Shown piece after piece: positions 20,399 through 42,061 of a DNA stretch of 64,000 bases. Both the position numbers and the translations under genes were made by a program. Source of the stretch: Alphaproteobacteria bacterium. Its GTDB lineage: Bacteria; Pseudomonadota; Alphaproteobacteria; JBKEAR01. The DNA is taken from NCBI GenBank assembly GCA_047973205.1, contig JBKEBO010000058.1:5750-69749 (forward strand), read 5' to 3'. How positions within the stretch are numbered: the first letter of the stretch is position 1; every line of letters starts with the position of its first letter. A model generated the notes under the pieces. It had not been told where the DNA came from and searched no databases. It worked only from the letters and a program-made list of their open reading frames with translations.

Positions 20399-21172
20399 AT
20401 GTATCTTGAAAAGTTAAGCTTAAAAGGAAAACGTGCGGTTATCACAGGAGCTGCTCGTGGTATTGGGCTTGCAATTTCAGAAGCTTTAGCCGAAGCAGGG
20501 GCTGAGGTTATTTTAACCGATATGCATAAAGAAGCCCTTAAAGAGGCAAAAGATTTACTTGCTCAAAAAGGCTATGAAACACAAACATTTGTGCTTGATG
20601 TTACCAATGTTGACCAAGTGAATAAAGCGGCAGAGCATATCGAAAGCCATATTGGTCCAGTCAATATTTTGGTAAATAATGCAGGAATTGCTATATCAAA
20701 CCATCCTGCAGAAGATATGAGTGATGAGGTTTGGAATAAGGTTATTGATGTTAATCTGAATGGTGTTTTTTGGTGCTGTAGGGCTTTTGGTAAGTCTATG
20801 GTACTAAGGGAGGAGGGGGCGATTGTCAATGTTGGTTCAATGTCAGCCAATATTGTCAATCGTCCACAGGAACAAGCCAATTATAATGCTTCTAAAGCAG
20901 GGGTGCATCATCTCACACGTTCACTTGCAGCCGAATGGGCCTCCAAAGGTGTACGTGTTAATGTGGTTGCTCCTACCTATATTGATACCGAGATGAATGC
21001 CTATGTTTATGAAGATAAAGAAATGTATCGCTATTGGGTGGGAGGAACACCCATGGGGCGTTTAGGGCGTACGGATGAAGTTGCCTCAGTCGTCCATTTT
21101 TTAGTGAGTGATGCAGCAAGCCTTATGACAGGCTCAATTGTCCTTGCTGATGGTGGTTATTGCTGCTGGTAA
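20399..21172 (+). CDS. Short-chain dehydrogenase/reductase (SDR) family oxidoreductase
   Basis: The 257 aa product has a TGAARGIG cofactor motif and a YxxxK active site. It is a paralogue of the SDR at 32607-33404; both end in an unusual GG.CC(W/E) C-terminus. Confidence 0.88.
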   Translation: MYLEKLSLKGKRAVITGAARGIGLAISEALAEAGAEVILTDMHKEALKEAKDLLAQKGYETQTFVLDVTNVDQVNKAAEHIESHIGPVNILVNNAGIAISNHPAEDMSDEVWNKVIDVNLNGVFWCCRAFGKSMVLREEGAIVNVGSMSANIVNRPQEQANYNASKAGVHHLTRSLAAEWASKGVRVNVVAPTYIDTEMNAYVYEDKEMYRYWVGGTPMGRLGRTDEVASVVHFLVSDAASLMTGSIVLADGGYCCW

Positions 21173-21194
21173 GATAAAATTAAGGAGAGTAATT

Positions 21195-21944
21195 GTGCGT
21201 ATTGAAGAGACATTTCCAAATGATTTATTTAAAGGTCAAACAATATTTATATCAGGAGGTTCAAGCGGTATTGGCCAAACAGTTGCCCAAGGCTTTGCTC
21301 ATACAGGAGCAAAAGTGATTGCTACAGGAAGTTCCGCTACTAAAGTCGAAAAAGCCAATCAGGAAAATAATCTAGAAAATATCCAGTATGAGGTTTTAGA
21401 TGTTCGGAATTATGAAGCCGTTAAAGCACGTTTTGCCTCACTTGATGAGCTGCATGTTTTATTTAATTGCCAAGGTGTTGCACGCCCTGAAAGCGAATGG
21501 ACAGAAGAAGAGTTTTTAAATGTAATGGATATTAATTTAAATAGTGCGATGAGGCTTAGTCGTGAGGCCTTCCCTCATCTTAAAAAAACCAAAGGAAGTA
21601 TTGTTAATGTGGCATCAATGCTCAGCTATTTAGCCGATGCAGATGTACCTTCTTATACGGCTTCAAAAACAGGGATTGTTGGGCTTACGAGAGTTTTGGC
21701 TCATAAATATGGCATTGATGGTGTTCGGGTGAATGCTATTGCTCCAGGCTATCATAAAACCAATATGACCAAGCCTTTATGGAGTGTTGAAGAAAGTGCA
21801 GAAAAAATAGCAAACCGCTCGGCTCTTAAACGTTGGGGGACAACAGATGATCTTGTAGGCCCAGTTTTGTTTTTAGCATCACCAGCCGCAAGCTTTGTTA
21901 CAGGTATTACTCTAGCTGTTGATGGAGGATATCATATAGGGTAA
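21195..21944 (+). CDS. SDR-family oxidoreductase
   Basis: The product has an ISGGSSGIG motif. A GTG start with an AAGGAGAG RBS is preferred over the track's 21138 ATG, which overlaps the previous gene by 35 nt. Confidence 0.85.
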   Translation: MRIEETFPNDLFKGQTIFISGGSSGIGQTVAQGFAHTGAKVIATGSSATKVEKANQENNLENIQYEVLDVRNYEAVKARFASLDELHVLFNCQGVARPESEWTEEEFLNVMDINLNSAMRLSREAFPHLKKTKGSIVNVASMLSYLADADVPSYTASKTGIVGLTRVLAHKYGIDGVRVNAIAPGYHKTNMTKPLWSVEESAEKIANRSALKRWGTTDDLVGPVLFLASPAASFVTGITLAVDGGYHIG

Positions 21945-21991
21945 GGCAATAAAGCCTTACCAAAAATTTAAAAATAACATGGAGGTATAAA

Positions 21992-23023
21992 ATGAATAAC
22001 TTTAAAACAAAAATTTTAAGTACATGTATTATTGCAACGGCAATTATAGGTACAACGGCCTATGCAAAAGATAAAGAAATTAGTGCATGTATTATTACCA
22101 AAACAGATGCCAATCCATTTTTTGCAAAAATGCGTGAAGGTGCTGAACAACGTTCAAAAGAGCTTGGTATTAAGCTGAAATCTTTTGCGGGTAAATATGA
22201 TGGCGATAACCAAGCTCAGGTTGATGCGATTGAAACTTGTATTTTGGACGGGGTGGATGGTATTTTGATGTCTCCTAATGACTCAAAAGCCATTGTACCA
22301 AAAGTTAAAGAAGCTCGTGATGCAGGGATTTTATTTATTACTGTTGACTCTCCCTTAGACCCTCTTGATGCAGCCGATGCAACTTTTGGTACAGATAATT
22401 ACAAGGCGGGTGTTCTGATTGGTCAATGGGCAAAAGCAAAAATGGGAGCTGATGCGGCCAAAGCTCGTATTGGATTTTTAGATATCAATGCAAGCCAAGT
22501 AGCGGTGGATGTTCTTCGTGATCAAGGCTTTATGGAAGGTTTTGGTATTGACGTTAAAGATGCAAATTATATTGGTGATGAAGATGATCCTCGTATAATT
22601 GGTCATGCCTATTCTAATGGTGCCGAAGAAGGTGGTTATAAAGCCATGGAAACCATTTTGCAGATGGACCCTAATGTGAATATAATTCATACAATTAACG
22701 AGCCTGCAGCAGCAGGAGCCTACGAAGCATTAAAAGCCGTTGGTAAACAAGATGATGTGATTATTGTTTCGGTTGATGGTGGTTGCCCTGGTGTGCAAAA
22801 TGTTAAGGAAGGTATTATTGGTGCAACATCGCAGCAATATCCATTACGGATGACAATATTGGGCATTGATGCTATTAAAGAATATGCTGAAACAGGCAAA
22901 AAACCTGAGCCAACACCAGGAAAAGACTTCTTTGATACAGGAGTTAAATTGATTACGGATCAACCTGTAGATGGCGTTGATTCCATTGATTCTAAAGAAG
23001 GTGCTAGTCTTTGCTGGGGTTAA
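21992..23023 (+). CDS. Sugar ABC transporter periplasmic substrate-binding protein (type I PBP, ribose/fructose-binding-like)
   Basis: The 343 aa product has a signal peptide and PBP-1 fold conservation. Confidence 0.88.
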
Positions 23024-23128
23024 ACTAAAATGCATAGGAAAGCCTTTAAAAAATAGAGGCTTTCCAATATATTTTCATGAAATATTAATGAGCTTATCCA
23101 TATGAATATGGATATAAGGGAGAGCTTT

Positions 23129-24202
23129 ATGGAAGATAAGAATAACACAAAGCCAGAATATGAAAAAATAGTCACACAAGCTGCAGGAAATATTGCCGCA
23201 TTTGAAGATGAAAAAGACTCACTTGGCAAAAAGTTTTTTAGTCTTTTACATGCCAATCCTGCTTTAGCTCCTTTTTTGGTGCTTTGTACTTCTGTGATTG
23301 TTTTTGGATTGCTGCTTGGCTCAAAATTCTTTTCGCCTTTTGCTCTTACACTTATTTTGCAGCAAGTGGCTATTGTAGGTATTGTGGGTTGTGCTCAATC
23401 TTTGGTGATTTTAACCGCTGGTATCGACTTAAGTGTTGGAGCGATTATGGTTTTAAGCTCGGTAATTATGGGGCAATTTACCTTTCGCTATGGCTTACCT
23501 GTTGAATTGTCAGTTATTTGTGGTTTAGCCTTTGGTACATTAGCAGGAGCAATTAACGGCATTTTGGTGGCTATTGCTAAGCTTCCTCCTTTTATTGTAA
23601 CTTTAGGAAGTTGGCAAGTGCTTCTGGCAGCAAATTTTCTTTACTCCCATAATGAGACAATCAGAGCCCAAGATATCGCTTCTCAAGCTCCTCTTTTACA
23701 TTTTTTTGGTATTAAATTTAAAATGATGGGAGCTGTATTTACTTTAGGCACAATGATGATGTTGGGGCTTGTTTTTTTGTTGGCTTATATATTAAAGCAA
23801 ACGGCATGGGGGCGGCATGTTTATGCGGTGGGTGATGACCCACAAGCAGCTGAACTTGCAGGTATTAATGTGAAGCATCAATTGATTTCCGTTTATGCAT
23901 TATCAGGATTTATTTGTGCTTTAGCAGGTTGGGTTATGGCGGGGCGTATAGGCTCAATCTCGCCAAACTCAGGCCAGTTCACTAATATAGAGAGTGTTAC
24001 AGCTGTTGTGATTGGAGGTATATCACTCTTTGGTGGACGCGGCAATATTGCAGGCATGCTCTTTGGAGCATTAATCGTGGGAGTTTTTTCCTTAGGTTTA
24101 AGGCTTTTAGGCACCGATGCTCAATGGACAAACCTACTTATTGGTGTGTTGATTATTGCTGCAGTGAGTGTTGACCAATGGATAAGAAAGGTATCAGCAT
24201 AA
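23129..24202 (+). CDS. Sugar ABC transporter permease (CUT2/RbsC-like)
   Basis: The product is polytopic with RbsC/FrcC-like conservation. The ATG at 23129 follows an AAGGGAGAG RBS, while the track starts at 23102. Confidence 0.88.
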   Translation: MEDKNNTKPEYEKIVTQAAGNIAAFEDEKDSLGKKFFSLLHANPALAPFLVLCTSVIVFGLLLGSKFFSPFALTLILQQVAIVGIVGCAQSLVILTAGIDLSVGAIMVLSSVIMGQFTFRYGLPVELSVICGLAFGTLAGAINGILVAIAKLPPFIVTLGSWQVLLAANFLYSHNETIRAQDIASQAPLLHFFGIKFKMMGAVFTLGTMMMLGLVFLLAYILKQTAWGRHVYAVGDDPQAAELAGINVKHQLISVYALSGFICALAGWVMAGRIGSISPNSGQFTNIESVTAVVIGGISLFGGRGNIAGMLFGALIVGVFSLGLRLLGTDAQWTNLLIGVLIIAAVSVDQWIRKVSA

Positions 24203-24957
24203 TGTCGACAATTTTATATGCACGAAATTTAGTGAAACGTTATGGCCGTGTCGTTGCTCTTGACCATTGTGATGTAGACTTAAAGCGAGGGGAAATTTTA
24301 GCAATTATTGGTGATAATGGAGCAGGAAAATCTACCTTAATTAAAGCATTGTCAGGAGCAGTTATCCCTGACCAAGGTGAGATTTATCTTGATGATAAAA
24401 AAGTAAAATTCCATAACCCGATAGAGGCTCGCCACGAGGGAATCGAGACAGTTTATCAAACCTTGGCCATGTGTCCAGCCCTTTCTATTGCGGATAATAT
24501 GTTCATGGGGCGAGAGCTTCGTAAGGCGGGCATTTTAGGTAAGGTTTTTCGTCGGTTAGACCGCCAAAAAATGGAGGATATAGCAAGAGAAAAACTTAAT
24601 GAGCTTGGCTTGATGACTATCCAAAATATCAATCAGATGGTCGAAACACTCTCAGGCGGCCAAAGACAAGGCGTTGCGGTAGCTCGTGCAGCAACTTTTG
24701 GCTCTAAGGTAGTGATTTTAGATGAACCAACTGCAGCTCTTGGGGTTAAAGAAAGCCGCCGTGTGCTGGAGCTGATTAACGATGTTCGCTCCCGTGGTAT
24801 ATCCATTATCCTAATTAGCCATAATATGCCCCATGTATTTGAACTCGCTGACCGTATTCATATTCACCGTTTAGGCAAAAGGTTATGTGTGGTTGATCCC
24901 AAACAGGTTTCTATGTCTGATGCAGTCGGCCTTATGACAGGAGCTATTGAGCCTTGA
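24202..24957 (+). CDS. Sugar ABC transporter ATP-binding protein (single ABC domain, FrcA-like)
   Basis: The product has a GDNGAGKST Walker A, an LSGGQRQ signature and Walker B. Its ATG overlaps the permease stop (TAATG). Confidence 0.88.
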   Translation: MSTILYARNLVKRYGRVVALDHCDVDLKRGEILAIIGDNGAGKSTLIKALSGAVIPDQGEIYLDDKKVKFHNPIEARHEGIETVYQTLAMCPALSIADNMFMGRELRKAGILGKVFRRLDRQKMEDIAREKLNELGLMTIQNINQMVETLSGGQRQGVAVARAATFGSKVVILDEPTAALGVKESRRVLELINDVRSRGISIILISHNMPHVFELADRIHIHRLGKRLCVVDPKQVSMSDAVGLMTGAIEP

Positions 24958-25572: not shown

Positions 25573-27210
<1,638 letters not shown>

Positions 27211-29200: not shown

Positions 29201-29215
29201 TGTAGTATAACTACA
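29201..29215. promoter_or_regulatory. Candidate operator TGTAG-tataa-CTACA in the aspA/cupin-isomerase divergent region
   Basis: This is a perfect palindrome of the same family as 20313, 29224, 37737 and 37761. Confidence 0.45.
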
Positions 29216-29223
29216 ATATAGCT

Positions 29224-29238
29224 TGTAGTTTTGCTACA
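29224..29238. promoter_or_regulatory. Candidate operator TGTAG-ttttg-CTACA, 46 nt upstream of the cupin-isomerase start
   Basis: This is the second copy, 8 bp after the first, so the two sites are 23 bp apart centre to centre. Confidence 0.45.
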
Positions 29239-29283: not shown

Positions 29284-29910
29284 ATGATTTTTGAACCAAC
29301 AGCTCATCTCATAAACCCAGATACTGGCTCGCTTGATGGCCATACAGGAAGCTATATCAAAACACTCTTGCAACTTGAGGGCATTTATTCTGATACACAA
29401 GCCTTTGATGAAGCTTGCAAAACCCATGGAGATACAGTGGTTTATCGTGTGGAGGATGTTCGCCCTGATACGGATCATGGTAACTTAATTTTTGGTACAA
29501 CCTTTATGGAAGCAGGTGATATTGGTGGCGAATTTTATTTAACTCGAGGCCATATTCATGGCTTTGGTAATCGCCCCGAGACTTACTATGGCGAGTCAGG
29601 CCGTGGAGTTATGCTACTGGAATCTCCCGAAGGTGAGAGTCGTATTTTAGAAATAGCTCCTAAGGTGATGGTTTTTGTACCTCCCTATTGGATACATCGC
29701 TCTGTTAATATTGGCAATGAGCCTTTAGTGATGAGCTTTTGCTACCCAGCAGATTCAGGGCAAGATTATGATGTAATTGCCCAAACTTGTGGTATGGCAA
29801 AACGCATTATGAAGGATGGTATGGGCTGGAAAGCCATTGATAATATTCGCTATCAGCCCCGAACTGCGGAACAAATTAAGAGAATTTATGCCACAGGAGA
29901 CGAGAGATGA
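29284..29910 (+). CDS. Cupin-type sugar-phosphate isomerase (archaeal cPGI / glucose-6-phosphate-isomerase family)
   Basis: The product carries T.GH.H….E.YY….G.G.MLL and FVPPYWIHRSVNIG blocks that match Pyrococcus-type cupin PGIs. The ATG at 29284 follows a GGAGGAAAGAGG RBS, and the track's 29245 start lacks an RBS. Confidence 0.7.
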   Translation: MIFEPTAHLINPDTGSLDGHTGSYIKTLLQLEGIYSDTQAFDEACKTHGDTVVYRVEDVRPDTDHGNLIFGTTFMEAGDIGGEFYLTRGHIHGFGNRPETYYGESGRGVMLLESPEGESRILEIAPKVMVFVPPYWIHRSVNIGNEPLVMSFCYPADSGQDYDVIAQTCGMAKRIMKDGMGWKAIDNIRYQPRTAEQIKRIYATGDER

Positions 29911-32606: not shown

Positions 32607-33404
32607 TTATTCACAACAAGCTCCTCCTTCAGTTAGAACAACTGAGCCTGTCATAAAGCCTGAGGCTTCACTTGCTAAAAAGTGAACAGCCGAAGCAATT
32701 TCTCCTTCTTGATTACATTGCCCTGTTGTTTTGCTGCCAACCCAGTAGCGATATTTTTCTTCACGGCCACAAACATAGGTATCCATTTCCGTATCCACAT
32801 AAGTGGGGGCAACCACATTTACTCGTACGCCTCGCCAGCCCCATTCATCCGATAAAGCCTGCGACAAATGTTGTACAGCCGCCTTAGCTGCACGAAAACT
32901 CACATGTTTTTCAACACAACTTCCCATATTTGTTGGTGGAGAATTAATATTAATAATAGAGCCAATGCCGCGTCGTAACATTTTTTTACCAAATGCCTGA
33001 CAGCACCAAAAAACCCCATTAAGATTAACATTCATAACGTTAAGCCATGTTTCGCTACTCATGACTTCAGCAGGTTGATCGATAATTTCCATATTGGTAT
33101 TATTAACCAAAATATCCACAGGACCTATCTCATCTTCAATATGCCTTGCAACTTGGCTCGTTGCTTCCATATCCCCAACATCCAATGCTAAAGTATGAAC
33201 CTCAAAGCCTTTTTCTATCAATGGAGCTTGTGCCGTTTTAAGTAATGTCTCGTCAATATCTATCAGAATAACTTTAGCCCCTGCTTTAGCTAAAGCTTCT
33301 GAAATACTCAGCCCAACCCCTTGAGCAGCCCCTGTAATCACCGCTCGCTTTCCTTTTAGGCTTAACTTTTCACCATGCATGGCCACCCCTTTCTTTTGTG
33401 ACAT
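32607..33404 (-). CDS. SDR-family oxidoreductase (paralogue of 20399-21172)
   Basis: The product shares KLSLKGKRAVITGAA…NLNGVFWCC…VRVNVVAPTY…YRYWVG…GG.CC with the first SDR at roughly 50% identity. The true start is probably the Met at 33380. Confidence 0.85.
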   Translation of the reverse strand: MSQKKGVAMHGEKLSLKGKRAVITGAAQGVGLSISEALAKAGAKVILIDIDETLLKTAQAPLIEKGFEVHTLALDVGDMEATSQVARHIEDEIGPVDILVNNTNMEIIDQPAEVMSSETWLNVMNVNLNGVFWCCQAFGKKMLRRGIGSIININSPPTNMGSCVEKHVSFRAAKAAVQHLSQALSDEWGWRGVRVNVVAPTYVDTEMDTYVCGREEKYRYWVGSKTTGQCNQEGEIASAVHFLASEASGFMTGSVVLTEGGACCE

Positions 33405-33716: not shown

Positions 33717-34595
33717 CTAATCGATTTTTTCATCATCATTTAAACCATAACTACGAACATCTGCAATATATTGTTTCATTGCATCAAGGCGTTCCCGCTG
33801 CTCTATGGGGCGACGAAGAACCGTATAAGTCGATAATATATCGATAATCACTAAGGCGGCCATGCGGGAAATTGTTGGTGTGTATTTATCTGTATTATCT
33901 AAAGATTCAACAATCAGGCTAATATCTGAATGTTCTGTAAGTGGGCTTTTGCTTCCTGTAAGGCCAATGACCTTTGCACCATGGCTGCGAGCCACATCGG
34001 CCGCTCGGATAATCTCTTGGGTTTTTCCTGAATCCGAAATTGCTATAACCACATCGCCTTTTTGCATCATACTCACATTAATCAACATTTGGTGAGTATC
34101 GCTTATGGATTGGCAAGGAATGCCAAAAAGCGGAAATTTTTGTTGAGCATCTTGAGCAACAATGGAAGATGCTCCTAAGCCAAAAAAGTACAAAGATTTT
34201 GCTTCTAATATACAATCAACCGCATCAGCGAGAGCTTTTCTGTCTAGCTTTGTTCGTACCCAATCAAGACTTGTAAGGTTAAAGTCGAAGATTTTGTTAA
34301 TAACTTCATTAAAATCATCTTTATCCGATATAGCCGCATGGGATGTTGAAAGACCAAAAGCAAGGGAGCGAGCGAGCTTAATCTTCATATCTTGAAAGCC
34401 CTCACAACCAATAGAGTTACAAAATCGAATAACTGTTGGCTCACTTACATCTGAGAGTTTAGCGAGCTTAGCAAGCTTCATCTGTGGTACTGATTGAGGA
34501 TTTTCTAATATCTTTTCAGCAACCTTACGATCTGAGCGTCGCAATTTATCTAGTGAGCGTTTAATCTCTTCGATTAAATTGACTGATTCAAGCAT
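33717..34595 (-). CDS. RpiR/MurR-family transcriptional regulator (N-terminal HTH_6 plus C-terminal SIS sugar-phosphate-binding domain)
   Basis: The 292 aa product has an HTH (LAKLAKLSDVSEPTVIRFC) and a SIS domain (GLGASSIVAQD…AISDSGKTQE). It is the last gene of the kinase operon. Confidence 0.88.
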   Translation of the reverse strand: MLESVNLIEEIKRSLDKLRRSDRKVAEKILENPQSVPQMKLAKLAKLSDVSEPTVIRFCNSIGCEGFQDMKIKLARSLAFGLSTSHAAISDKDDFNEVINKIFDFNLTSLDWVRTKLDRKALADAVDCILEAKSLYFFGLGASSIVAQDAQQKFPLFGIPCQSISDTHQMLINVSMMQKGDVVIAISDSGKTQEIIRAADVARSHGAKVIGLTGSKSPLTEHSDISLIVESLDNTDKYTPTISRMAALVIIDILSTYTVLRRPIEQRERLDAMKQYIADVRSYGLNDDEKID

Positions 34596-34612: not shown

Positions 34613-35209
34613 CTATTGTGCAATATAGCCAACCCAACCAAGGCCATTATGCATTCCATTATGACCTGCCGCCGTAAAAGCTTCAATCATTTTATTATTT
34701 GCCGTAAAAAAGCAAACATTATTATCACCATCAAGCTGATACTCTGCTATTATACGAGCTTCTAAATGAGCAAAATCTTTCTGAGCTTTATCAAGATTTT
34801 GAGTACGAACTCCTAAATGATCAATTCCTTTGGTTGTTGTTGAACCATCTATTTGGGAGCAAAATTCAATGGGGACATTATCAGGACCTTTAAAAAAGAT
34901 AAAGCGAACACCCTCTTGCCAAAATTCTTTAATACTTGTAATGCCATCTGCAGTGTAATTTGCATCAAGCTTTAAGCCTTGCTTTTGTTTTTTTTGAGCA
35001 AAGCTATCTAAATCAATCACCTTAAAGGCAATATGGTCGAAGTGATAAGGTGTTATATTGTGATTGTTTTTCCATATATCTTGCTGCACAAGTAAAATCA
35101 CATCTTCACCATATGCAAGATGGTTCTTGCCAACATCTGCAAATGGGAGTTTTTTTGTAAAAAATGCCTTAGCATCTTCAATAGAAGTCACAGATAGTAC
35201 GGGTATCAT
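34613..35209 (-). CDS. VOC-superfamily (glyoxalase/dioxygenase-fold) protein with two tandem βαβββ modules
   Basis: The 198 aa product has two HF.H/HLG…R-type VOC halves. Its function cannot be told from the sequence. Confidence 0.55.
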   Translation of the reverse strand: MIPVLSVTSIEDAKAFFTKKLPFADVGKNHLAYGEDVILLVQQDIWKNNHNITPYHFDHIAFKVIDLDSFAQKKQKQGLKLDANYTADGITSIKEFWQEGVRFIFFKGPDNVPIEFCSQIDGSTTTKGIDHLGVRTQNLDKAQKDFAHLEARIIAEYQLDGDNNVCFFTANNKMIEAFTAAGHNGMHNGLGWVGYIAQ

Positions 35210-35247: not shown

Positions 35248-35901
35248 TTAGCCTTTTAAAAAATTCTCAATATAATCAACAGGTGACTGATTATAGGGAA
35301 TAAAATCAGCTCCTTTGGGTATTAGACTTTCATCTTGCACCTCATGTTGCGGATGATAAAGCACCTGCATTTTAGCATTAATGCCTGCCTGAGCCCCAGG
35401 GAGGCTATCTTCCACGACAAGGCAATCTTTTGGTTCTACTTTGAGATGCTTTGCTCCTAACAAATAGCTATCAGGCTCTGGCTTACCATGGGTAACATCG
35501 TAACGGCAAATATAATTAGGTATCACCTCATCGAGCTTGGTTACCTGCATGCAGCATTCAACTTCTTCTTTAGTTGAGTTAGAAACAACGGCCATTGGTA
35601 CTTTACGTTTAGCAAGCTCCGTAGCTAATGATGCTAAAGGCTCTCTACGGATAACCTCTTGAGCATGTTGTTCATAATAGTACCATTTTTTTGCTTTCCA
35701 TACCTCAAATTCCATATTCGTATTGGCAAGTTTTTGAAAGCGGCTATGTACATTTTCTAAGGTTGTTCCTGTAAGTGAAAGATGAAACTCCTCAGGAACG
35801 ATTATGCCGATTTCAGCGGCGATATTATCAAGGGCAGCATGGTGAGCAGGCTCACTGTCAATCAATGTTCCGTCCATATCCCATAAGATAGCTTTTGTCA
35901 T
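35248..35901 (-). CDS. HAD-superfamily hydrolase, β-phosphoglucomutase/sugar-phosphatase subfamily
   Basis: The 217 aa product has the ILWDMDGTLIDSE motif I and the EDS..G motif IV. Confidence 0.8.
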   Translation of the reverse strand: MTKAILWDMDGTLIDSEPAHHAALDNIAAEIGIIVPEEFHLSLTGTTLENVHSRFQKLANTNMEFEVWKAKKWYYYEQHAQEVIRREPLASLATELAKRKVPMAVVSNSTKEEVECCMQVTKLDEVIPNYICRYDVTHGKPEPDSYLLGAKHLKVEPKDCLVVEDSLPGAQAGINAKMQVLYHPQHEVQDESLIPKGADFIPYNQSPVDYIENFLKG

Positions 35902-37403
35902 GTAAGTTTGTCCAAATCGTGATAAAATTGTTGTGAGTGTTTGTAAAGTCGCTCATAAATAGGCATCATGCGATTATATCGCTCAACCCATTGAGGAGAC
36001 GGCATAATTTCTTCTGAAAAACGTACCATAGATTGGGCTGCATCTTCAACATTATTCTTTGCTCCTGTACTTGTTGCCATAAGCATTGCTGCTCCAACAA
36101 TGCCACATTCAAGCTCTTGGGGTACTCTATAAGCCACATTATACATACTCGCTTTAATCTCAAGCCATAGGTGATTTTTTGCCCCGCCACTGGCTGCAAT
36201 AATTGCTTCAGGCCGTCCATCTTTATCCACCTCATCCAAAACACGACGAACCGAAAAAGCTACCCCTTCTAAAACGGCTCGATGCAAATCTGCCATATTA
36301 TGTTCCGCTGTTAGGCCAAAAAATTGAGCCCGTGAGTTTTTGTAATCCCCAAAACGTTCTCCTGATAAATAAGGCAAAAAGAACAAACCATTAGCTCCCA
36401 CTTCTGAACGGTGAGCATCTTCGGTTATTTCCGCGTAACTTCGTTGATTATCATGAAAAGCTCGCCTTGCCCAACGTGGTGCATCTCCTCCTGCATCCAA
36501 AAGTGTCATGGCTCCCCATACACCATTAGCCGAAAGTACATTAGAGACTTGCGGTTTTAAGATAGGGCCATCATGCATCAATGTAACAATAGTAGATGTA
36601 CCTGTAACATCTGAGCCCATTCCTTGCTTAATCACACCAGAGCCAATTAATGCCATAGGATAATCCCCCGCCCCCACAAGTACAGGAATATCAGCCGAAA
36701 GCCCTATTTTTGCAGCAACTTTAGCGTCAAGCCCACCCAATATGTCTTCAGGAGCATGTAAATCAGGAAGCAAGTCTCTTGAGACCCCTGTAATCTCGCA
36801 CAATTCATCAGACCATTGACGGGTTTGCCAATCCATCAAAAAGCTTAAACTGGCTTCTGTATAATCTTGAGCTCGTTTACCTGTTAGCTTAAAGTTAATC
36901 CAATCTTTCGGCATTAAAAGAGTAGTTGAGCGAGCCAAAGCCTCAGGTTGATTTTCAGCAATCCATGCAACTTTAAGAGCGGGCCATGCAGGCGATGGTG
37001 TATTGGCTGTAAGTTCTAAAATTTTTTTTGTACTCAAAGACTTTGTAAGCTCTTCGACTTGCTTAATATTACGTTTATCATTCCAAAGAGGAACAGCTTC
37101 TAATGCTGGTTTACCACTATCATCAATTAAAACAGAACCATGCATTTGCCCACAACAACATATGGCTGCAATACGATGATGAGCGTTTTCAACCTTAGCC
37201 AAAACATCTTTCATAGTTGTTAATGTACCATGCCACCAATCTTCAGGACGTTGTTCCGACCATCCATATCTAGGAACTATCTGCTCATGTTCCTTATGGC
37301 TAAAAGCTAAGATATGCCCAGCTCCATCCACTATAGCCGAACGAAGCCCGCCTGTACCCACATCAATCGCTAAATATAAATCCCTAACCTGCTGCTTTTG
37401 CAT
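35898..37403 (-). CDS. FGGY-family carbohydrate kinase (xylulokinase/glycerol-kinase-like)
   Basis: The 501 aa product has LAIDVGTGGLRSAIVD at the N-terminus and FGGY_N/C conservation. It is the first gene of the kinase-HAD-VOC-RpiR operon. Confidence 0.88.
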   Translation of the reverse strand: MQKQQVRDLYLAIDVGTGGLRSAIVDGAGHILAFSHKEHEQIVPRYGWSEQRPEDWWHGTLTTMKDVLAKVENAHHRIAAICCCGQMHGSVLIDDSGKPALEAVPLWNDKRNIKQVEELTKSLSTKKILELTANTPSPAWPALKVAWIAENQPEALARSTTLLMPKDWINFKLTGKRAQDYTEASLSFLMDWQTRQWSDELCEITGVSRDLLPDLHAPEDILGGLDAKVAAKIGLSADIPVLVGAGDYPMALIGSGVIKQGMGSDVTGTSTIVTLMHDGPILKPQVSNVLSANGVWGAMTLLDAGGDAPRWARRAFHDNQRSYAEITEDAHRSEVGANGLFFLPYLSGERFGDYKNSRAQFFGLTAEHNMADLHRAVLEGVAFSVRRVLDEVDKDGRPEAIIAASGGAKNHLWLEIKASMYNVAYRVPQELECGIVGAAMLMATSTGAKNNVEDAAQSMVRFSEEIMPSPQWVERYNRMMPIYERLYKHSQQFYHDLDKLT

Positions 37404-37505: not shown

Positions 37506-37520
37506 TATAGTATAACTACA
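37506..37520. promoter_or_regulatory. Near-copy of the island palindrome (TaTAG-tataa-CTACA), about 100 nt upstream of the FGGY kinase operon
   Basis: It has one mismatch in the left half-site. Confidence 0.3.
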
Positions 37521-37736: not shown

Positions 37737-37751
37737 TGTAGTTATGCTACA
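37737..37751. promoter_or_regulatory. Candidate operator TGTAG-ttatg-CTACA, copy 1 upstream of the second ABC operon
   Basis: It is part of a perfect 18-bp direct repeat tgtagttatgctacaaat ×2. It is preceded by TTGACA at 37719-37724, so it overlaps a likely -10 region. Confidence 0.5.
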
Positions 37752-37760
37752 AATGCACAT

Positions 37761-37775
37761 TGTAGTTATGCTACA
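37761..37775. promoter_or_regulatory. Candidate operator TGTAG-ttatg-CTACA, copy 2
   Basis: It is identical to copy 1 and lies 24 bp downstream, 34 nt before the SBP start. Confidence 0.5.
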
Positions 37776-37808: not shown

Positions 37809-38774
37809 ATGAAACTTAAATCAATGCTTATTTCTACTATCTTATTTTCATCTGTTATAACCCAAGCTTATGCTGCTGATTGCAAGATTGGTATCTCCAT
37901 GAAAACACTTTCAGCTCCTTATTTTGCAGCCCAAGAACAATCCGCACGGCTAAAAGCTGAAAAAATTGGCTGCAAAGTTGTCTCTACCGATGCCAATAAC
38001 GATTTAAATAAACAAATTGCCGATGTGGAAGATATGGTTGCTCAAGGTATTCAAGCTTTAATTATTAATCCAAGAGATAGTCAAGGGCTTGTACCTGCTG
38101 TAAATGCAGCAAGTGGTGCTGGCGTTAAGGTTATTGTTATTGATTCCACTTTAGACCCTACTGCTGATTTTTTAACATTAGTTCAATCATCTAACTTACA
38201 AAATGGTATGCTTGTCGGCCGCTGGATTGCCGATAATACAAAGGGTAAGGATTTAAAAATTGCTCTTTTATCGGGAGCTCAAGGCAACGAGGTTGGCCAA
38301 GAACGCCGCTTGGGGACATTATCAGGCTTATTAGAAGGTCAGCTTAAAAATAAAGGTAACGCTGGTTTTGATGTTGTGGCTCAAGGTTGGGGAAATTGGA
38401 GTTCTGAAGGCGGTCTTACGGCTATGGAAGATATTTTAGTTGCTCATCCTGATATCAATGTGGTTTTAGGCGAAAATGACTCCATGGTTTTAGGAGCTCA
38501 AAAAGCTCTTGAGGCTAATGGCCGTAGTGATGATATTCTCCTAGTAGCTGCTGCTGATGGCCAAAAAGAAGCCCTAGAGTTGATTAAAGAAGGAAAATAT
38601 GGTGCAACAGGGCTTAATGACCCTGCTCTTGTGGCCTCAACCGCTGTAGATATTGCCAAACAAGCTATTGATGGTAAGCTGCCTGAGGGCTTATCAAAGC
38701 TTACCTATACAACTCCAGCGGTAATCTCTAAAAAGAATATTGATAAATATTACAAAGAAGATGCCGTCTTTTAA
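37809..38774 (+). CDS. Sugar ABC transporter substrate-binding protein (ribose/xylose/arabinose-binding-like PBP-1)
   Basis: The product has a signal peptide (MKLKSMLISTILFSSVITQAYA|AD). A GGAGG RBS precedes the start. The track's 37719 start merely translates the operator repeats. Confidence 0.88.
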   Translation: MKLKSMLISTILFSSVITQAYAADCKIGISMKTLSAPYFAAQEQSARLKAEKIGCKVVSTDANNDLNKQIADVEDMVAQGIQALIINPRDSQGLVPAVNAASGAGVKVIVIDSTLDPTADFLTLVQSSNLQNGMLVGRWIADNTKGKDLKIALLSGAQGNEVGQERRLGTLSGLLEGQLKNKGNAGFDVVAQGWGNWSSEGGLTAMEDILVAHPDINVVLGENDSMVLGAQKALEANGRSDDILLVAAADGQKEALELIKEGKYGATGLNDPALVASTAVDIAKQAIDGKLPEGLSKLTYTTPAVISKKNIDKYYKEDAVF

Positions 38775-38799: not shown

Positions 38800-40278
38800 A
38801 TGAACCAAACAATTGTTAAATTATCTAATATTTCTAAATCTTTTGGAGGTGTTCATGCTCTTAAAGATGCTAGTCTTGAACTTAAAGCAGGTGAAGTCCA
38901 TGCTCTTATTGGAGAGAACGGGGCAGGAAAATCAACCCTAATGAATATCTTAGGTGGGCTTTTTGCCCCAAGCAGCGGCCATATTGAGCTTGAAGATAAA
39001 AAAATTAACCTCCATAATCCCCGTGATGCCCAGCTTAAGGGAATATCTATTATTCATCAAGAAATGGCCTTGGCTAACGATTTAACAGTTTCTGAAAATA
39101 TTTTTCTCTCAGAAATACCTACCATAATTAACTGGAAACAACTTAACCAGCGAGCAAGAGAGCTTATCCAGTATTTAGGCTTTGATATATCCCCTAAAGC
39201 TCTTGTGGGTAGTCTCTCTGTAGCTCATCGGCAAATTATTGAAATTGCCAAAGCTCTTTCTCATCGCTCAAAAATTGTTGTTTTTGATGAGCCAACCGCT
39301 GTTCTCTCAACCCGAGATGCTAATCGTCTTATGGAGGTTATTGAAGGGCTTAAGAGTAACGGTGTAGGTGTTATTTATATTTCTCATCGTCTGGATGAGG
39401 TTTTTCATATTGCGGATCGTATCACCATACTCAAGGATGGTCACAGTGTAAATACACTTAATACAAAAGATACAGATATATCTTCAGTTATTGAGCTTAT
39501 GGTTGGACGAAAGCTAGAGGCTATGTTTGGTGACAACATTCCTAAAAGCATTGGCGATATTGCTTTAAGTGTTGATGGAATTCCATATCTTGAGCAAGCC
39601 AAAGATATAAATTTTCAAATCCACCGTGGTGAGATTGTTGGTCTTGGAGGCCTTGTGGGGGCAGGGCGGACAGAACTTATGCGGCAAATTTTTGGTGCTG
39701 AGCCTCACTCTAACATTTCCTTAAATATTAAGAACAAGCCCATATCTATTCACAATCCTTATCAAGGGGTCAAAAATGGTATTGCCCTTGTCCCTGAAAG
39801 TCGTAAAGAACATGGTGTTATTTTAGATATGCCCATTAAATGGAATATCACCATGGCCAAAATGTCTGCTATAACGAATATATTTGGTTTTATTCGCCGT
39901 AAGGTTGAAAAAACTGAAGTCAACCACCTTGTCAAAGCTCTTCAACTTAAGGCTGATTCTATTAACGATGCTGTTTCCAGTCTTTCGGGAGGAAACCAGC
40001 AAAAGGTAGTTTTGGCTAAATGGCTCCATGCTGGTGGTGATATCCTAATATTTGACGAGCCAACAAGAGGTGTAGATGTAGGAGCAAAAGCTGAAATTTA
40101 TACATTGATTAAAAAGTTAGCTGCTGAAGGTAAAGCAATTATTGTTATCTCCTCGGAGCATCTGGAACTTTTTGGTCTTTGTGATCGCATCATTGTTATG
40201 CGAGAAGGTCAACTTGCAGGCGAGCTTAAACCAAAGGAATATTCTGAAACCAATATACTGAACTTCGCCATGGCTTAA
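38800..40278 (+). CDS. Sugar ABC transporter ATP-binding protein (duplicated ABC domains, CUT2/RbsA-like)
   Basis: The 492 aa product has two Walker A/signature/Walker B sets. Confidence 0.9.
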   Translation: MNQTIVKLSNISKSFGGVHALKDASLELKAGEVHALIGENGAGKSTLMNILGGLFAPSSGHIELEDKKINLHNPRDAQLKGISIIHQEMALANDLTVSENIFLSEIPTIINWKQLNQRARELIQYLGFDISPKALVGSLSVAHRQIIEIAKALSHRSKIVVFDEPTAVLSTRDANRLMEVIEGLKSNGVGVIYISHRLDEVFHIADRITILKDGHSVNTLNTKDTDISSVIELMVGRKLEAMFGDNIPKSIGDIALSVDGIPYLEQAKDINFQIHRGEIVGLGGLVGAGRTELMRQIFGAEPHSNISLNIKNKPISIHNPYQGVKNGIALVPESRKEHGVILDMPIKWNITMAKMSAITNIFGFIRRKVEKTEVNHLVKALQLKADSINDAVSSLSGGNQQKVVLAKWLHAGGDILIFDEPTRGVDVGAKAEIYTLIKKLAAEGKAIIVISSEHLELFGLCDRIIVMREGQLAGELKPKEYSETNILNFAMA

Positions 40279-40295
40279 ATAAAGGAGAGGTAACT

Positions 40296-41258
40296 ATGAC
40301 AACATTAACAAAATCTCAGATTAATATCGGTTTTTTATTAAATAAGTATGGTACTTTCATTATTTTAATTGTCTTACTTTTATTGGCTCATTCTATGTCT
40401 GATGTATTTTTGACTAAACGCAATATCTTTAATATTTTACGGCAAATGACAGGAACAGGGCTTATGGCTGTTGGTATGTTATTTGTTATTCTTACAAGAG
40501 GTATTGATCTTTCGGTAGGTTCTATCTCAGCCTTAGGCTCTGTGGTTTCCGCTGTGTTAGTTCAATCTCTCCCTATTCCCTTAAGCCTTGCAGAAACACT
40601 TGCTATTGGCGGAGTATGTGGTCTTATTTCAGGGCTACTCATTGCTTATCTTCGCTTGCCCGCTTTTGTTACGACTTTAGCTCTCATGACCATGGCAAGA
40701 GGAGCGGCTCTTATTGTCTCTAATGGCCAACCTATTCGCATGGGAAGTGCTGGAAGTAGCATTACAAAATTTGGCTCTTCCTATAGCTTTGGTATTCCTC
40801 AACCTGTTATATTACTGATAGCTGTTTTTGTTATTGCAGCTATTATTCTTAATTTTACTCGCTTTGGTCGCATGATTAAAGCCATTGGCTCTAATGAAGA
40901 AGCTGTTCGGCTTTCTGGTGTACGTGTTTCTTTTTATATTGTTTGTGTTTATGTTATTTCTGGTATATTAGCTGCTGCAGCAGGCATAATCTCAACAAGC
41001 CGTACAGGTATTGGCTCAGCCAATATTGGTGTTGGAGCCGAACTTTACGCCATTGCAGCGGTCGTTATTGGCGGAGCGAGCCTTATGGGAGGACGTGGCG
41101 GAGCTTTAAATACCTTTTTTGGAGTATTCATTTTAGGCATTATTGCCAACTTAATGAATCTAGCGGGTGTTCCAGGATTTTACCAGCAAGTCTTTATGGG
41201 GATTATCATTATTAGTGCCATGCTTTTACAATTTAGCTCCACCTTATTTAAACGCTAA
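40296..41258 (+). CDS. Sugar ABC transporter permease (RbsC-like)
   Basis: The 320 aa product has about 9 TM segments and CUT2 permease conservation. An AAGGAGAGG RBS precedes the start. Confidence 0.88.
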   Translation: MTTLTKSQINIGFLLNKYGTFIILIVLLLLAHSMSDVFLTKRNIFNILRQMTGTGLMAVGMLFVILTRGIDLSVGSISALGSVVSAVLVQSLPIPLSLAETLAIGGVCGLISGLLIAYLRLPAFVTTLALMTMARGAALIVSNGQPIRMGSAGSSITKFGSSYSFGIPQPVILLIAVFVIAAIILNFTRFGRMIKAIGSNEEAVRLSGVRVSFYIVCVYVISGILAAAAGIISTSRTGIGSANIGVGAELYAIAAVVIGGASLMGGRGGALNTFFGVFILGIIANLMNLAGVPGFYQQVFMGIIIISAMLLQFSSTLFKR

Positions 41259-41260
41259 CC

Positions 41261-42061
41261 TTATATATTCAAAAAGGATTTTATATATTTGCCAACGCCG
41301 TCTTCACTATTGGGGCGAGCCATATTAGCAAATTGTTTAATGGCTGACTTGCGTCCATTTTCCATCACTACAGGATGACCCACCGCCTTAAGCATAGGAA
41401 CATCATTGGCATTATCACCAAAAGCCATACAATTTTTTAAATTATAGCCATTTTTCTGGGCAATAAAGCGTACAGCAACACCTTTATTTGCATCTTTACT
41501 TAAAATTTCTAAAGAATTATCAAGGGCATATGTTCCCCATAGGTTTAGGCTTGTATCATTTTCTATTTGAGCATAAGCCTTGTTAAGCTCTTCTTCATTA
41601 TGCCAGCGAAATACAATTTTTGTTAATTGTTTTTGAGCAAAATCCTCTAAATTACTTACCTCATGATTAAGCCCACCAATACCAAAGTAACTTTGTGAAA
41701 GCTCATCATCTTTATTAGTATAAACTGTATCGCCACAATACCAAATTACAGTAAATCCGTGGTCTTGAGCAAGACGAATAAGGGCTTGGTTATCTGCAAT
41801 ATCAATACCTATTTGATATAAATATTCACCTGTATCAAAATTTTCGACCTTACAGCCATTAAAGCTACAAACCAAATTACGAGGCTTTAGCCCTTCGACG
41901 GAGCGAATAGATACAGAAGAGCGTCCTGTAACCACATGAAAAGGAATACCTGCATCCCATGCCGCCTGTATAACTTCTTGATTATAAGGGCTAACAACAT
42001 GATGTTCATTCAGTAATGTTCCATCTAAATCGCTAAATATAGCCTCAATTTTATTCATCAA
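41261..42061 (-). CDS. Cof-type HAD-IIB sugar phosphatase
   Basis: The 266 aa product has FSDLDGTLL motif I and a C-terminal GDNANDVPM motif. Confidence 0.8.
   Translation of the reverse strand: MMNKIEAIFSDLDGTLLNEHHVVSPYNQEVIQAAWDAGIPFHVVTGRSSVSIRSVEGLKPRNLVCSFNGCKVENFDTGEYLYQIGIDIADNQALIRLAQDHGFTVIWYCGDTVYTNKDDELSQSYFGIGGLNHEVSNLEDFAQKQLTKIVFRWHNEEELNKAYAQIENDTSLNLWGTYALDNSLEILSKDANKGVAVRFIAQKNGYNLKNCMAFGDNANDVPMLKAVGHPVVMENGRKSAIKQFANMARPNSEDGVGKYIKSFLNI

Follow-up and report, generated by a model that had tools for sequence, protein, structure and literature searches.

A cPGI-type cupin, a shikimate-dehydrogenase-fold enzyme and a putative phospho-sugar pathway in a conserved bacterial gene cassette

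Genes, operators and operons of the span

The sequence considered here is a stretch of 64,000 nucleotides (the window) from contig JBKEBO010000058.1 of an Alphaproteobacteria bacterium (assembly GCA_047973205.1), and this work concerns the genes located between its positions 20399 and 42061, which encode two ABC importers, a set of oxidoreductases, a sugar kinase, a cupin of the cPGI family and an RpiR-family regulator. The initial annotation described this span as a mosaic catabolic island for a polyol or a rare sugar. All of the gene families that it listed, including three SDRs and two CUT2 importers, were confirmed by profile scans with Pfam and NCBIfam (release June 2026), although groES, groEL and aspA, which also lie inside the span, had been left out of its inventory. 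The operators and the gene comparisons presented below indicate that the listed genes form four co-regulated operons carrying a cassette present in hundreds of bacteria, and are not a patchwork; the cassette probably converts an imported sugar alcohol to a phosphorylated sugar acid by a seemingly uncharacterised route. The genes and promoter sites of the four operons (A, D, F, and G) are as follows.

20103..20117, operon A: operator-like site TGTAGCTAAATTACA with 1 mismatch, 5' of the operon
20313..20327, operon A: operator TGTAGTTAAACTACA, a perfect RccR-type 15-bp palindrome, 72 bp 5' of SDR1 (repeat family D4)
20399..21172, plus strand, operon A: SDR-a (SDR1; adh_short_C2, 238 bits)
21196..21944, plus strand, operon A: SDR-b (SDR2), KduD-like by Pfam/NCBIfam, orthologue of the second conserved SDR
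21992..23023, plus strand, operon A: CUT2 substrate-binding protein (SBP) A (Peripla_BP_4, 151 bits)
23102..24202, plus strand, operon A: CUT2 permease A (BPD_transp_2, 139 bits)
24178..24957, plus strand, operon A: single-domain ABC ATPase A, 259 aa, with one ABC_tran domain
29201..29238, operon D: two operators, TGTAGTATAACTACA and TGTAGTTTTGCTACA, 46-83 bp 5' of the cupin start
29284..29910, plus strand, operon D: cPGI-family cupin, putative sugar-phosphate aldose-ketose isomerase (PF06560, 169 bits against a cutoff of 20.7)
29907..30860, plus strand, operon D: SDHL, 317 aa, NAD(P) oxidoreductase with a shikimate-dehydrogenase fold in its AlphaFold2 (AF2) model, proposed sugar-phosphate 1-dehydrogenase
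30857..31780, plus strand, operon D: PGDH-like D-2-hydroxyacid dehydrogenase, 2-Hacid_dh (2-Hacid_dh_C, 153 bits)
31777..32592, plus strand, operon D: MBL-fold metallo-hydrolase, 271 aa (Lactamase_B_2/B_3), proposed phospho-aldonolactone lactonase (UlaG-like)
33717..34595, minus strand, operon F: RpiR-family (HexR/RccR-like) regulator (HTH_6 and SIS by Pfam), proposed repressor
34613..35209, minus strand, operon F: VOC-family protein with weak Glyoxalase matches, inside the kinase operon
35248..35901, minus strand, operon F: HAD-IA (beta-phosphoglucomutase-like) phosphatase or phosphomutase (HAD_2, 97 bits)
35898..37403, minus strand, operon F: XylB-like FGGY kinase (FGGY_N/C)
37506..37520, operon F: operator-like site TATAGTATAACTACA, 5' of the FGGY operon (repeat family D4)
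37737..37775, operon G: two operators, TGTAGTTATGCTACA twice, 5' of the SBP_G operon
37809..38774, plus strand, operon G: CUT2 SBP G of the conserved cassette importer (Peripla_BP_4, 178 bits)
38800..40278, plus strand, operon G: tandem-domain CUT2 ATPase G with two ABC_tran domains, 50-58% identical in related loci
40296..41258, plus strand, operon G: CUT2 permease G (BPD_transp_2, 150 bits), 54-60% identical in related loci

The motif TGTAG-N5-CTACA, with at most one mismatch, was found eight times in 64 kb, as compared with 1.15 matches expected by chance. Seven of these eight matches are located in three promoter regions that serve four operons: two of them are 5' of SDR1, two 5' of the cupin gene and three in the spacer between the divergent FGGY and SBP_G genes. 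The sites at 20313 and 29201 are perfect, and those at 20103, 29224, 37506, 37737, and 37761 are one-mismatch variants. RccR, a HexR paralogue of Pseudomonas that senses KDPG (2-keto-3-deoxy-6-phosphogluconate), binds a 15-bp operator with the half-sites TGTAGT and ACTACA and a 3-bp spacer (PMC5489143, PMC11014249), and the window motif TGTAGT-N3-ACTACA is an exact match to these half-sites and spacer. The 31 nt around the operator sites constitute a repeat family (D4). In the promoter of the SBP_G operon, TTGACA-18-TATGCT, the first copy of TGTAGTTATGCTACA extends over the -10 box; as the promoter scan overall was not above chance (67 sites vs 58.6 expected), only this site, which overlaps an operator, is used here. 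No operator was found 5' of groES, aspA, SDR3 or the Cof HAD gene. Since a shared operator precedes four operons, the first SDR/ABC operon is linked to the rest, and the operators would tie operon A (SDR1, SDR2, and importer A) to operons D, F, and G as one regulon.

The protein that acts at these sites is presumably the RpiR-family (HexR/RccR-type) regulator of operon F, which would repress the four operons through the TGTAGT-N3-ACTACA operators in their promoters, the repression being lifted by a phosphorylated intermediate of the pathway. Its score on the NCBIfam HexR model is 260.2 bits, which is below the cutoff of 296. Its best PDB match, with a full-length alignment, is 8k3b/8ju9 (E 6e-57), which we take to be P. 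aeruginosa RccR based upon the protein length and residue numbering in PMC11014249. The residues by which RccR of P. aeruginosa binds KDPG are S139, H148, R152, H164, S183, S185, S188, T231, and K270 (PMC11014249), and in the window regulator seven of the nine KDPG-contact positions (the Ser/Thr/Lys/His164 set) are conserved or conservatively replaced, R277 being outside the alignment. Judging from these positions, the effector would be a phosphosugar, but probably not KDPG itself.

Occurrence of the cassette and surroundings of the span

The core of the cassette consists of the cPGI-type cupin, SDHL, a D-2-hydroxyacid dehydrogenase and the MBL-fold hydrolase, and it is accompanied by two SDRs, an XylB-like FGGY kinase, a HAD protein, an RpiR regulator and an ABC importer. 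The cupin had initially been regarded as rare in bacteria, but a search with it yielded 2017 clusters at 90% identity, mostly from the Alpha- and Betaproteobacteria. The corresponding search with SDHL gave at least 8000 clusters, again mostly from these two classes, in which most of the cupin and SDHL relatives are found at 60-79% identity; an exhaustive search recovered 1112 SDHL relatives among representatives at 50% identity. With 50-80% identity, the core is found again in the same layout in the Rhizobiales, Rhodobacterales, Burkholderiaceae and others, and the description of the span as a mosaic is thus not supported. The cupin and SDHL of the window are themselves 100% identical to the proteins MFV0431888 and MFV0431889 from a metagenome-assembled genome (MAG) at NCBI.

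To determine how regularly these genes occur together, 42 proteobacterial loci that were retrieved via SDHL, with one genome per species, were compared. The cupin gene adjoins SDHL in all of them (42/42). The RpiR regulator is present in 36 of the loci, MBL and SDR-a in 35 each, and the FGGY kinase and SDR-b in 28 each, the FGGY orthologues being 52-66% identical; an SBP at least 50% identical to SBP_G was detected in 31/42, and in 24/42 the HAD-IA gene adjoins the FGGY gene. Sites equivalent to 29201..29238 are found just 5' of the cupin gene or its operon in the alphaproteobacterial loci L001-L004, L008, L014, L036, L037, L057, and L058. In S. meliloti the operator precedes the first gene of the cupin's operon rather than the cupin gene itself, and in L057 operators are present before the cupin, SDR, FGGY, and SBP genes, as they are in the window.

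Several arrangements of the cassette can be distinguished. In Marinovum algicola, Kaistia, a Cohaesibacteraceae MAG and S. meliloti, the clusters contain the cupin, a KDPG-type aldolase (PF01081), SDHL, 2-Hacid_dh, and MBL, to which RpiR, the FGGY kinase, usually a HAD protein and a variable ABC importer are added. The closest relative, L057 (SDHL 79% identical), matches the layout of the window gene for gene but for two differences: the aldolase is present in L057, and the VOC gene is not. In the Burkholderiaceae, RpiR, permease, ATPase, SBP, and a GlcD-like FAD oxidase are encoded by one strand, and the cupin, SDHL, SDR, MBL, FGGY, HAD, an iron-containing alcohol dehydrogenase (Fe-ADH) and a further SDR by the divergent strand. 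The full cassette of S. meliloti Ak57 (L058, CP090106.1) forms one long operon, which includes an SDR, an Fe-ADH annotated as glycerol dehydrogenase and a "D-threitol dehydrogenase," with DeoC and FGGY genes downstream. In S. meliloti 1021 the SDHL orthologue is UniProt Q92K00. The record CP090106.1 is labelled "plasmid pSymB" in PLSDB, but at 3.72 Mb it appears to be chromosomal. The PF01081 aldolase gene lies between the cupin and SDHL genes in L001, L004, L056, L057, and L058; it was found neither in the span nor among the 20 flanking proteins that were scanned, and in the window the stop codon of the cupin gene overlaps the SDHL start. What sets the window cassette apart is that it has lost the aldolase, contains one SDR in duplicate, and includes an additional importer and the VOC gene.

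The enzymes of the window do not all correspond to those of one characterised, co-localised pathway; the synteny observed is with uncharacterised clusters. Our full-text literature searches found no paper that describes the cassette, no curated model for it was found, and no NCBIfam equivalog model reaches its cutoff for the cupin, SDHL, MBL, 2-Hacid_dh, FGGY, or SDR proteins, in agreement with the initial view that the pathway is undescribed. Two reports, PMC12994016 (2026, on an L-threonate 3-dehydrogenase) and PMC12780249 (on a tetrose isolate), concern other clusters. The window is therefore one more member of a widespread uncharacterised cassette.

The remaining genes of the span are listed below.

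25222-25509, plus strand: groES, mid-span, between two operons of the sugar regulon
25576-27210, plus strand: groEL, mid-span
27552-28985, minus strand: aspA, aspartate ammonia-lyase, mid-span
32607..33404, minus strand: SDR3, a diverged SDR-a paralogue, at the position where relatives keep SDR-a
41261..42061, minus strand: Cof-type HAD-IIB phosphatase (Hydrolase_3, 183 bits)

The three SDRs differ in their degree of conservation. SDR1 is 72% identical to the Caballeronia SDR that is encoded between SDHL and MBL and 81% identical to the SDR of L057, and SDR2 is 57-60% identical to the in-cluster SDRs of S. meliloti and Caballeronia. SDR3 shows 55% amino acid identity to SDR1, and the two genes form an inverted duplicate that is detectable at the DNA level (73-77%; 20382-20523 with 33256-33397, and 21077-21165 with 32614-32702). 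Judged by identity to relatives, the copy in operon A (SDR1) is the conserved orthologue, the copy at the ancestral position beside MBL having diverged. A 32-nt likeness (81%) between the 3' ends of SDR1 (21109-21140) and ATPase A (24918-24949), comprising about their last 11 codons, is probably due to chance, with a recombination scar as another possibility.

Of the two complete CUT2 sets, each consisting of a Peripla_BP_4 SBP, a BPD_transp_2 permease and an ABC ATPase, only that of operon G is shared with the relatives. In a comparison with 58 related loci, importer A appears to be specific to the window: SBP A is about 26% identical to the SBPs of these loci and its best PDB matches are weak, and ATPase A, whose alignment to the models for tandem CUT2 ATPases is confined to their N-terminal half, has a 44%-identical match (247 aligned residues) in the Aureimonas locus L036. 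The VOC and Cof proteins have no homologue in the 58 loci, and their membership of the system is for this reason unproven. The VOC gene, which is missing from the otherwise identical layout of L057, sits inside a regulated operon; for the Cof gene membership is doubtful. A glyoxalase-type reading, with VOC, MBL, and a D-lactate dehydrogenase acting on a 2-oxoaldehyde, was rejected as the conserved logic because VOC is absent from all relatives and the MBL protein is of the Lactamase_B_2/B_3 and not the GloB type.

The G+C content of the window is about 39%, with values of 0.37-0.43 both inside and outside the span and no change at its borders. No tRNA genes were found in the window, and no mobility families were detected among the 20 span and 20 flanking proteins that were scanned against Pfam and NCBIfam. 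On account of these observations, status as a genomic island, which the initial annotation had proposed, is not supported, and we reject it. Some local rearrangement in the span is nonetheless likely, as the SDR1/SDR3 duplication suggests. A 41-nt inverted repeat (20011-20051 and 24983-25023, 80% complementary) flanks operon A, promoter and operators included; it may have been left behind by an insertion or an inversion, or consist of copies of a short intergenic repeat, and its significance is uncertain because other repeat pairs of about this length appear to be chance matches. The groESL and aspA genes carry their own terminators, with an intrinsic-terminator-like hairpin 3' of groEL at 27239-27270. 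The spacer between groEL and aspA contains a repeated intergenic element with TCCATTTTTGTCCAT, present as a 39-nt inverted repeat (85%; 27312-27350 and 27451-27489), and a further copy of the TCCATTTTTGTCCAT element occurs at 11667-11704 (~11.7 kb). Words of the form ATGGAYAWA number 11 in the window, as compared with 3.9 expected, and this element may be REP/MITE-like or a protein-binding array.

Three starts in the mechanical list of open reading frames (ORFs) were wrong and have been corrected: that of the cupin to 29284, that of SDR2 to GTG 21196, behind the ribosome-binding site AAGGAG, and that of SBP_G to ATG 37809, which is located behind GGAGG and followed by a signal peptide, the listed TTG 37719 being part of the -35 box. 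Upstream, the span is flanked by a flavodoxin-domain gene, an alpha/beta hydrolase, four small ORFs and thiamine-related kinase genes, and downstream by queA, tgt, and glyS/glyQ. The four small ORFs (118-126 aa) are arranged in tandem at 18376-20003, just 5' of operon A; two of them have faint lipocalin-like or DUF5640 matches, and they resemble a small paralogous family. A second, unrelated uptake/redox system is located at 3869-11152, with an aldo-keto reductase, a CMD+cupin fusion, a Zn-dependent alcohol dehydrogenase, an AraC regulator, and a complete TRAP transporter (DctPQM). Lastly, at 55472-55823, the 3' end of a 644-aa ORF (53887-55821) contains two repeat copies, 231-234 nt apart and 75-89% identical, which encode Glu/Lys-rich repeats.

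Enzymes of the cassette and a proposed route

The window cupin shares PF06560 with the archaeal and bacterial cPGIs and matches the P. furiosus enzyme 1x7n with an E value of 7e-40. The metal ligands H88, H90, E97, and H136 are all identical, the alignment of the two proteins shows no visible gaps, and the C-terminal Tyr residues, which are presumably phosphate-binding, are kept. The cPGI signatures that Hansen et al. reportedly described in 2005 are TX3PX3GXEX3TXGHXHX6-11EXY and PPX3HX3N. The second of these is present in the window cupin and the first is matched except for an Ala in place of Pro; among 120 cassette homologues the first is present in strict form in 108 and the second in 118. 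In contrast to the archaeal enzyme, the window cupin and all 120 homologues have Gln in place of H158, and this change may indicate an altered specificity. The characterised cPGIs, including that of E. meliloti, are said (Hansen 2005) to be specific for fructose-6-phosphate (F6P) and glucose-6-phosphate (G6P). The window gene is part of a catabolic cassette and not of glycolysis, and its physiological substrate may be neither of these.

SDHL belongs to no Pfam family and has no sequence relative in the PDB, and its scores on the NCBIfam AroE models (35.9 and 30.1 bits) are far below their cutoffs (413 and 221). Its AF2 model (pLDDT 96.6) was nevertheless matched by Foldseek to known structures with TM values of 0.63-0.85 and E values down to 2.5e-17, the top 50 matches consisting of AroE, YdiB, quinate dehydrogenase, 5-ketofructose reductase (7cok/7col), Ael1 and one unassigned SDH-family protein. 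With the shikimate/quinate dehydrogenase family SDHL shares the two-domain fold, a glycine-rich NAD(P) motif and, presumably, the catalytic dyad, in the form of a conserved Lys and Asp, and the Gluconobacter 5-ketofructose reductase (7cok) provides a precedent for this fold acting on sugars. It differs from this family in its low identity (14-20%), its lack of Pfam or NCBIfam membership, about 45 extra residues, and its own invariant motifs VTTHK, NATGxGKDxPGSP, NYRG, and several Trp residues; further, it is never found beside aro genes, its neighbour in all 42 proteobacterial loci being the cPGI-type cupin. In an alignment of 66 diverse homologues, T74, H76, K77, NATGxGK, and several Trp residues are invariant and D117 is nearly so. 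From their position in the motifs, we take K77 and D117 to be a catalytic dyad that matches K65 and D102 of AroE. In one protein, P0245, 2-Hacid_dh and SDHL are naturally fused.

The best NCBIfam model for 2-Hacid_dh is PGDH (192 bits vs a cutoff of 454), and the protein also matches PdxB; its sequence contains GxGxxG as well as the NTARAG Arg and the TSHIGG His. Among the 42 loci an NAD-type 2-Hacid_dh is present in nine and a GlcD-like FAD-type D-2-hydroxyacid oxidase in 34, the two together accounting for 42/42. The NAD type was counted at 40% identity or above, at which level it never co-occurs with the FAD type; a tenth locus has a 2-Hacid_dh match of 32% identity that coexists with the FAD type. 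As one or the other of these enzymes is strictly present, an acid intermediate is implied.

In the MBL-fold protein the HxHxDH metal site is intact, and this motif and the downstream His/Asp ligands are invariant among its homologues, which are named after UlaG at JGI (a COG label). The nearest folds to its AF2 model are NAPE-PLD, followed by 2wyl/2wym, presumably E. coli UlaG, and 3bv6 (TM 0.74-0.78). It is, however, unlike UlaG in several respects: its score on the UlaG equivalog model PRK11709 is only 31.7 bits vs a cutoff of 306, its length is 271 aa vs about 354 aa, it has no UlaD/E/F partners, and its lactone would arise in situ through the action of SDHL rather than be imported by a phosphotransferase system.

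Further indications of the function at this position come from more distant relatives. In four of seven non-proteobacterial loci, from an unclassified bacterial MAG, Bacillota, Eubacteriales, and Spirochaetota, MBL is lacking and a gene of the phosphotriesterase (PTE) family (PF02126) is located directly 5' of SDHL. The best solved relatives of the one such gene that was tested, from L049, are 3pnz and 3msr/3ovg, which we take to be Lmo2620, a phosphorylated-sugar-lactone lactonase, and Ms0025, both of the cog1735 type. In PMC10971088, Ms0025 is described as a D-xylono-1,4-lactone-5-phosphate lactonase for which L-arabino-1,4-lactone-5-phosphate is also a substrate. This displacement of MBL by a non-orthologous PTE protein argues that the step beside SDHL is the hydrolysis of a phosphorylated sugar lactone. 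A similar exchange of MBL for PTE is known between the E. coli ula operon and Mycoplasma. In L053 (8972-14744, a Spirochaetota MAG), a PTE-family lactonase-like gene lies 5' of SDHL, and genes for a RuBisCO-like protein (PF00016) and two Zn-dependent alcohol dehydrogenases lie 3' of SDHL, with no cupin and no 2-Hacid_dh, which suggests a different downstream fate for the presumed phospho-aldonate.

The FGGY kinase scores 360 bits on the XylB model TIGR01312 (cutoff 380) and matches E. coli XylB, 2itm (E 3e-58). The gene of the HAD-IA protein, which reaches 108 bits on the PGMB-YQAB subfamily model (cutoff 153), overlaps the kinase gene by 4 bp, so the two may be translationally coupled. For the importers no substrate-specific equivalog model reaches its cutoff. 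SBP_G is 57-61% identical to the SBPs of the Burkholderiaceae clusters, and its closest solved relative, 4ry9 (E 4e-113), is presumably a Verminephrobacter SBP crystallised with D-talitol (= D-altritol).

Based upon these assignments, the following route may be proposed. A polyol or rare ketose, probably of hexitol size, would be imported, and the SDRs would oxidise the polyol to a ketose, which the XylB-like kinase would phosphorylate at a terminal hydroxyl. The cPGI-type cupin would then turn the ketose-phosphate into an aldose-phosphate, SDHL would oxidise C1 to give a phospho-aldonolactone, MBL would hydrolyse the lactone to a phospho-aldonate, and the PGDH-like dehydrogenase would oxidise the latter at C2, yielding a 2-keto acid. 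This acid would be cleaved in close relatives by an aldolase of the KDPG type; as the window has no aldolase gene, cleavage would occur there in trans or the product would be used differently. We infer the order of the steps, the redox directions, the phosphorylated state of the substrates and the role of RpiR as a repressor from the gene content, and for the scheme taken as a whole, from polyol to 2-keto acid, the chance of its being correct is in our view a little short of even. The logic of oxidation, phosphorylation and isomerisation that was initially suggested for a polyol or rare sugar is retained in it, and most of the genes form one catabolic system. Overall, the route would be an Entner-Doudoroff-like oxidative branch assembled from non-homologous parts, with SDHL in place of Zwf, MBL in place of Pgl, and a 2-hydroxyacid dehydrogenase in place of Edd. 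A more specific form of it, which we put forward tentatively and with considerable reserve, is a widespread undescribed oxidative phospho-sugar pathway in which SDHL is a convergent analogue of G6P dehydrogenase and MBL or PTE and the D-2-hydroxyacid dehydrogenase replace Pgl and Edd, a hexitol or rare ketose (D-altritol, D-psicose, D-tagatose) being the likely substrate and a 3-deoxy-hexose a possible one.

A number of points weigh against the oxidative route. A KDPG-type aldolase needs a 3-deoxy-2-keto acid, and C2 oxidation of an ordinary phospho-aldonate gives none, hence the substrate would have to be a 3-deoxy compound from the outset, unless the last steps are wrong. Neither the window nor any of the clusters of the FAD-oxidase type has the aldolase. 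Two KDPG-contact residues of the regulator differ (H148 to Q and R152 to L), and the MBL model is as near to the phosphodiesterase NAPE-PLD as it is to 2wyl/2wym. The HAD-IA protein may be a mutase rather than a phosphatase, and the roles of SDR-a, SDR-b, the Fe-ADH of the relatives, HAD, and VOC are assigned only loosely. The indications of chain length are in conflict: pentose-5-phosphates would be expected from a kinase like XylB and from the known lactonases of the PTE type, but hexoses or C6 compounds from cPGI, aldolase, regulator and SBP homologue (with its presumed ligand). Lastly, five oxidoreductases exceed the needs of a linear scheme.

Some of these points would be accommodated by redox isomerisation without a lactone, where SDHL is a keto-sugar(-phosphate) reductase, the dehydrogenases interconvert polyols and ketoses, the kinase and cPGI supply central metabolism with fructose-6-P and glucose-6-P, and the MBL and PTE proteins are phosphoesterases or serve another function. 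The presence of 5-ketofructose reductase (7cok/7col) among the top structural neighbours of SDHL, the five oxidoreductases per cluster, the nearness of the MBL model to NAPE-PLD and the reported specificity of characterised cPGIs for F6P and G6P are all consistent with this possibility, which we consider unlikely. It leaves unexplained the strict presence of one or the other D-2-hydroxyacid dehydrogenase, with the acid intermediate that this implies, as well as the aldolase of the relatives and the fusion of 2-Hacid_dh with SDHL, and the tested PTE-family gene from an MBL-less locus is nearest to phosphosugar-lactone lactonases and not to phosphodiesterases.

The near-cutoff score of the kinase on the xylulokinase equivalog (360 vs 380 bits) could alternatively point to a pentitol or L-pentulose route, with the kinase yielding a pentulose-5-P, the cupin an aldopentose-5-P, and the lactones being those of Ms0025 and, presumably, Lmo2620, to whose structures (3msr and 3pnz) the L049 gene is nearest. 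Such a route is improbable. The cupin aligns without visible gaps to the hexose-6-P isomerase of P. furiosus and keeps the presumed phosphate-binding C-terminal Tyr, C6 acids are suggested both by the aldolase of the KDPG type and by the resemblance of the regulator to HexR/RccR, and xylulose-5-P requires no further oxidation. In favour of the route, D-xylono- and L-arabino-1,4-lactone-5-phosphate are cited in PMC10971088 as substrates of Ms0025.

A tetritol route, from D-threitol, erythritol or L-threitol to erythrulose, followed by phosphorylation by FGGY, formation of erythrose-4-P or threose-4-P by the cupin and of 4-phospho-erythronate or -threonate by SDHL, and then the PdxB/SerA-like 2-hydroxyacid dehydrogenase, is about equally improbable. 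The S. meliloti cluster does contain an SDR that NCBI names D-threitol dehydrogenase and a "glycerol dehydrogenase," the GolD/DthD family model gives SDR1 209 bits, 2-Hacid_dh is most like PGDH and also matches PdxB, and erythrose-4-P reportedly inhibits cPGIs. However, no lactone can arise from a tetrose-4-phosphate, so that the conserved lactonase slot of MBL or PTE would lack an explanation, and erythrose-4-P is already a central metabolite. No EryB/EryC/TpiA2/RpiB or DerK/DerI family was found in the scanned proteins, the window SDRs are just 30-35% identical to the "DthD" of S. meliloti, and the closest solved SBP is presumably a hexitol binder. That the span holds no single pathway, and is an accidental juxtaposition or a recently acquired mosaic island, is very improbable and largely refuted by the common operator before four operons, the gene set and layout shared with L057 and dozens of genomes, and the uniform G+C content without tRNAs or a mobility family among the scanned genes, despite the division of the span by groESL and aspA, the lack of counterparts for VOC, Cof HAD, and importer A in related loci, and the local rearrangement suggested by the 41-nt inverted repeat around operon A and the SDR1/SDR3 inverted duplicate.

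If the oxidative route is correct, thousands of protein clusters labelled "shikimate dehydrogenase family" or "glucose-6-phosphate isomerase family" are misleadingly named, and many such clusters in the Alpha- and Betaproteobacteria and other phyla would appear to be part of one carbohydrate pathway. To our knowledge, bacterial cupin-type PGIs have hitherto been viewed only as laterally acquired curiosities and their physiological role is not established; it would now become testable, as the cassette is present in culturable hosts such as Sinorhizobium meliloti, Marinovum algicola, Paraburkholderia, and Caballeronia. The pathway and its substrate would also be added to genome annotation and to carbon-cycle models of marine and soil bacteria. 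The cassette thus represents a well-defined and experimentally tractable gap that touches two mis-annotated protein families.

Comparison with known systems

The family content of the cassette fits none of the erythritol, threitol, ribitol, xylitol, fructose, L-ascorbate Ula/Yia, D-apiose, D-altritol/galactitol, ketogluconate, and KduI/KduD pathways, as we take these to be defined; for erythritol, ribitol, xylitol, and fructose this difference had already been pointed out in the initial annotation. The FGGY fold is all that the cassette has in common with the erythritol and threitol pathways (EryABCD-HI; M. smegmatis Dth/Lth/Elt), its kinase being XylB-like, and no EryB (GlpD-like), EryC/LerI (TIM-barrel isomerase), TpiA2/RpiB or DAK-type kinase was detected among the scanned proteins. 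The polyol pathways delineated by the Enzyme Function Initiative with SBPs as guides (D-altritol/galactitol in A. tumefaciens; D-/L-threitol and erythritol in M. smegmatis) resemble the cassette in combining a CUT2 importer, a polyol dehydrogenase, a ketose kinase, and a sugar-phosphate isomerase or epimerase. However, the dehydrogenases of those pathways belong to PF00107, their kinase is of the PfkB or DAK type, and their last enzyme class is represented by a GatZ-like epimerase or by TIM/RpiB isomerases; they end at fructose-6-P or erythrose-4-P, and they have no cupin, SDH-fold enzyme, lactonase, or 2-hydroxyacid dehydrogenase.

In function, the cassette comes closest to the zwf-pgl-(edd)-eda module of Pseudomonas, which is controlled by HexR. 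In both cases an RpiR-family regulator is encoded beside the genes that it controls, or would control, the operator half-sites of the cassette are those of RccR, and the cassette regulator keeps the phosphate-binding Ser/Thr/Lys positions, although it falls below the HexR cutoff and differs at positions 148 and 152. The logical order is also alike, with a sugar-6-P dehydrogenase, a phospholactonase, a 2-keto acid and, in relatives of the window cassette, a pyruvate aldolase. In contrast, no cassette enzyme is homologous to its counterpart Zwf, Pgl, or the Edd dehydratase, no homologues of these three proteins were found among the 20 span and 20 flanking proteins, and the regulon of the window serves peripheral sugar uptake and not central metabolism. 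If the oxidative route holds, the cassette would realise the Entner-Doudoroff logic of dehydrogenase, lactonase and 2-keto acid for a second time, with non-homologous enzymes and under a regulator and operator of the HexR/RccR type.

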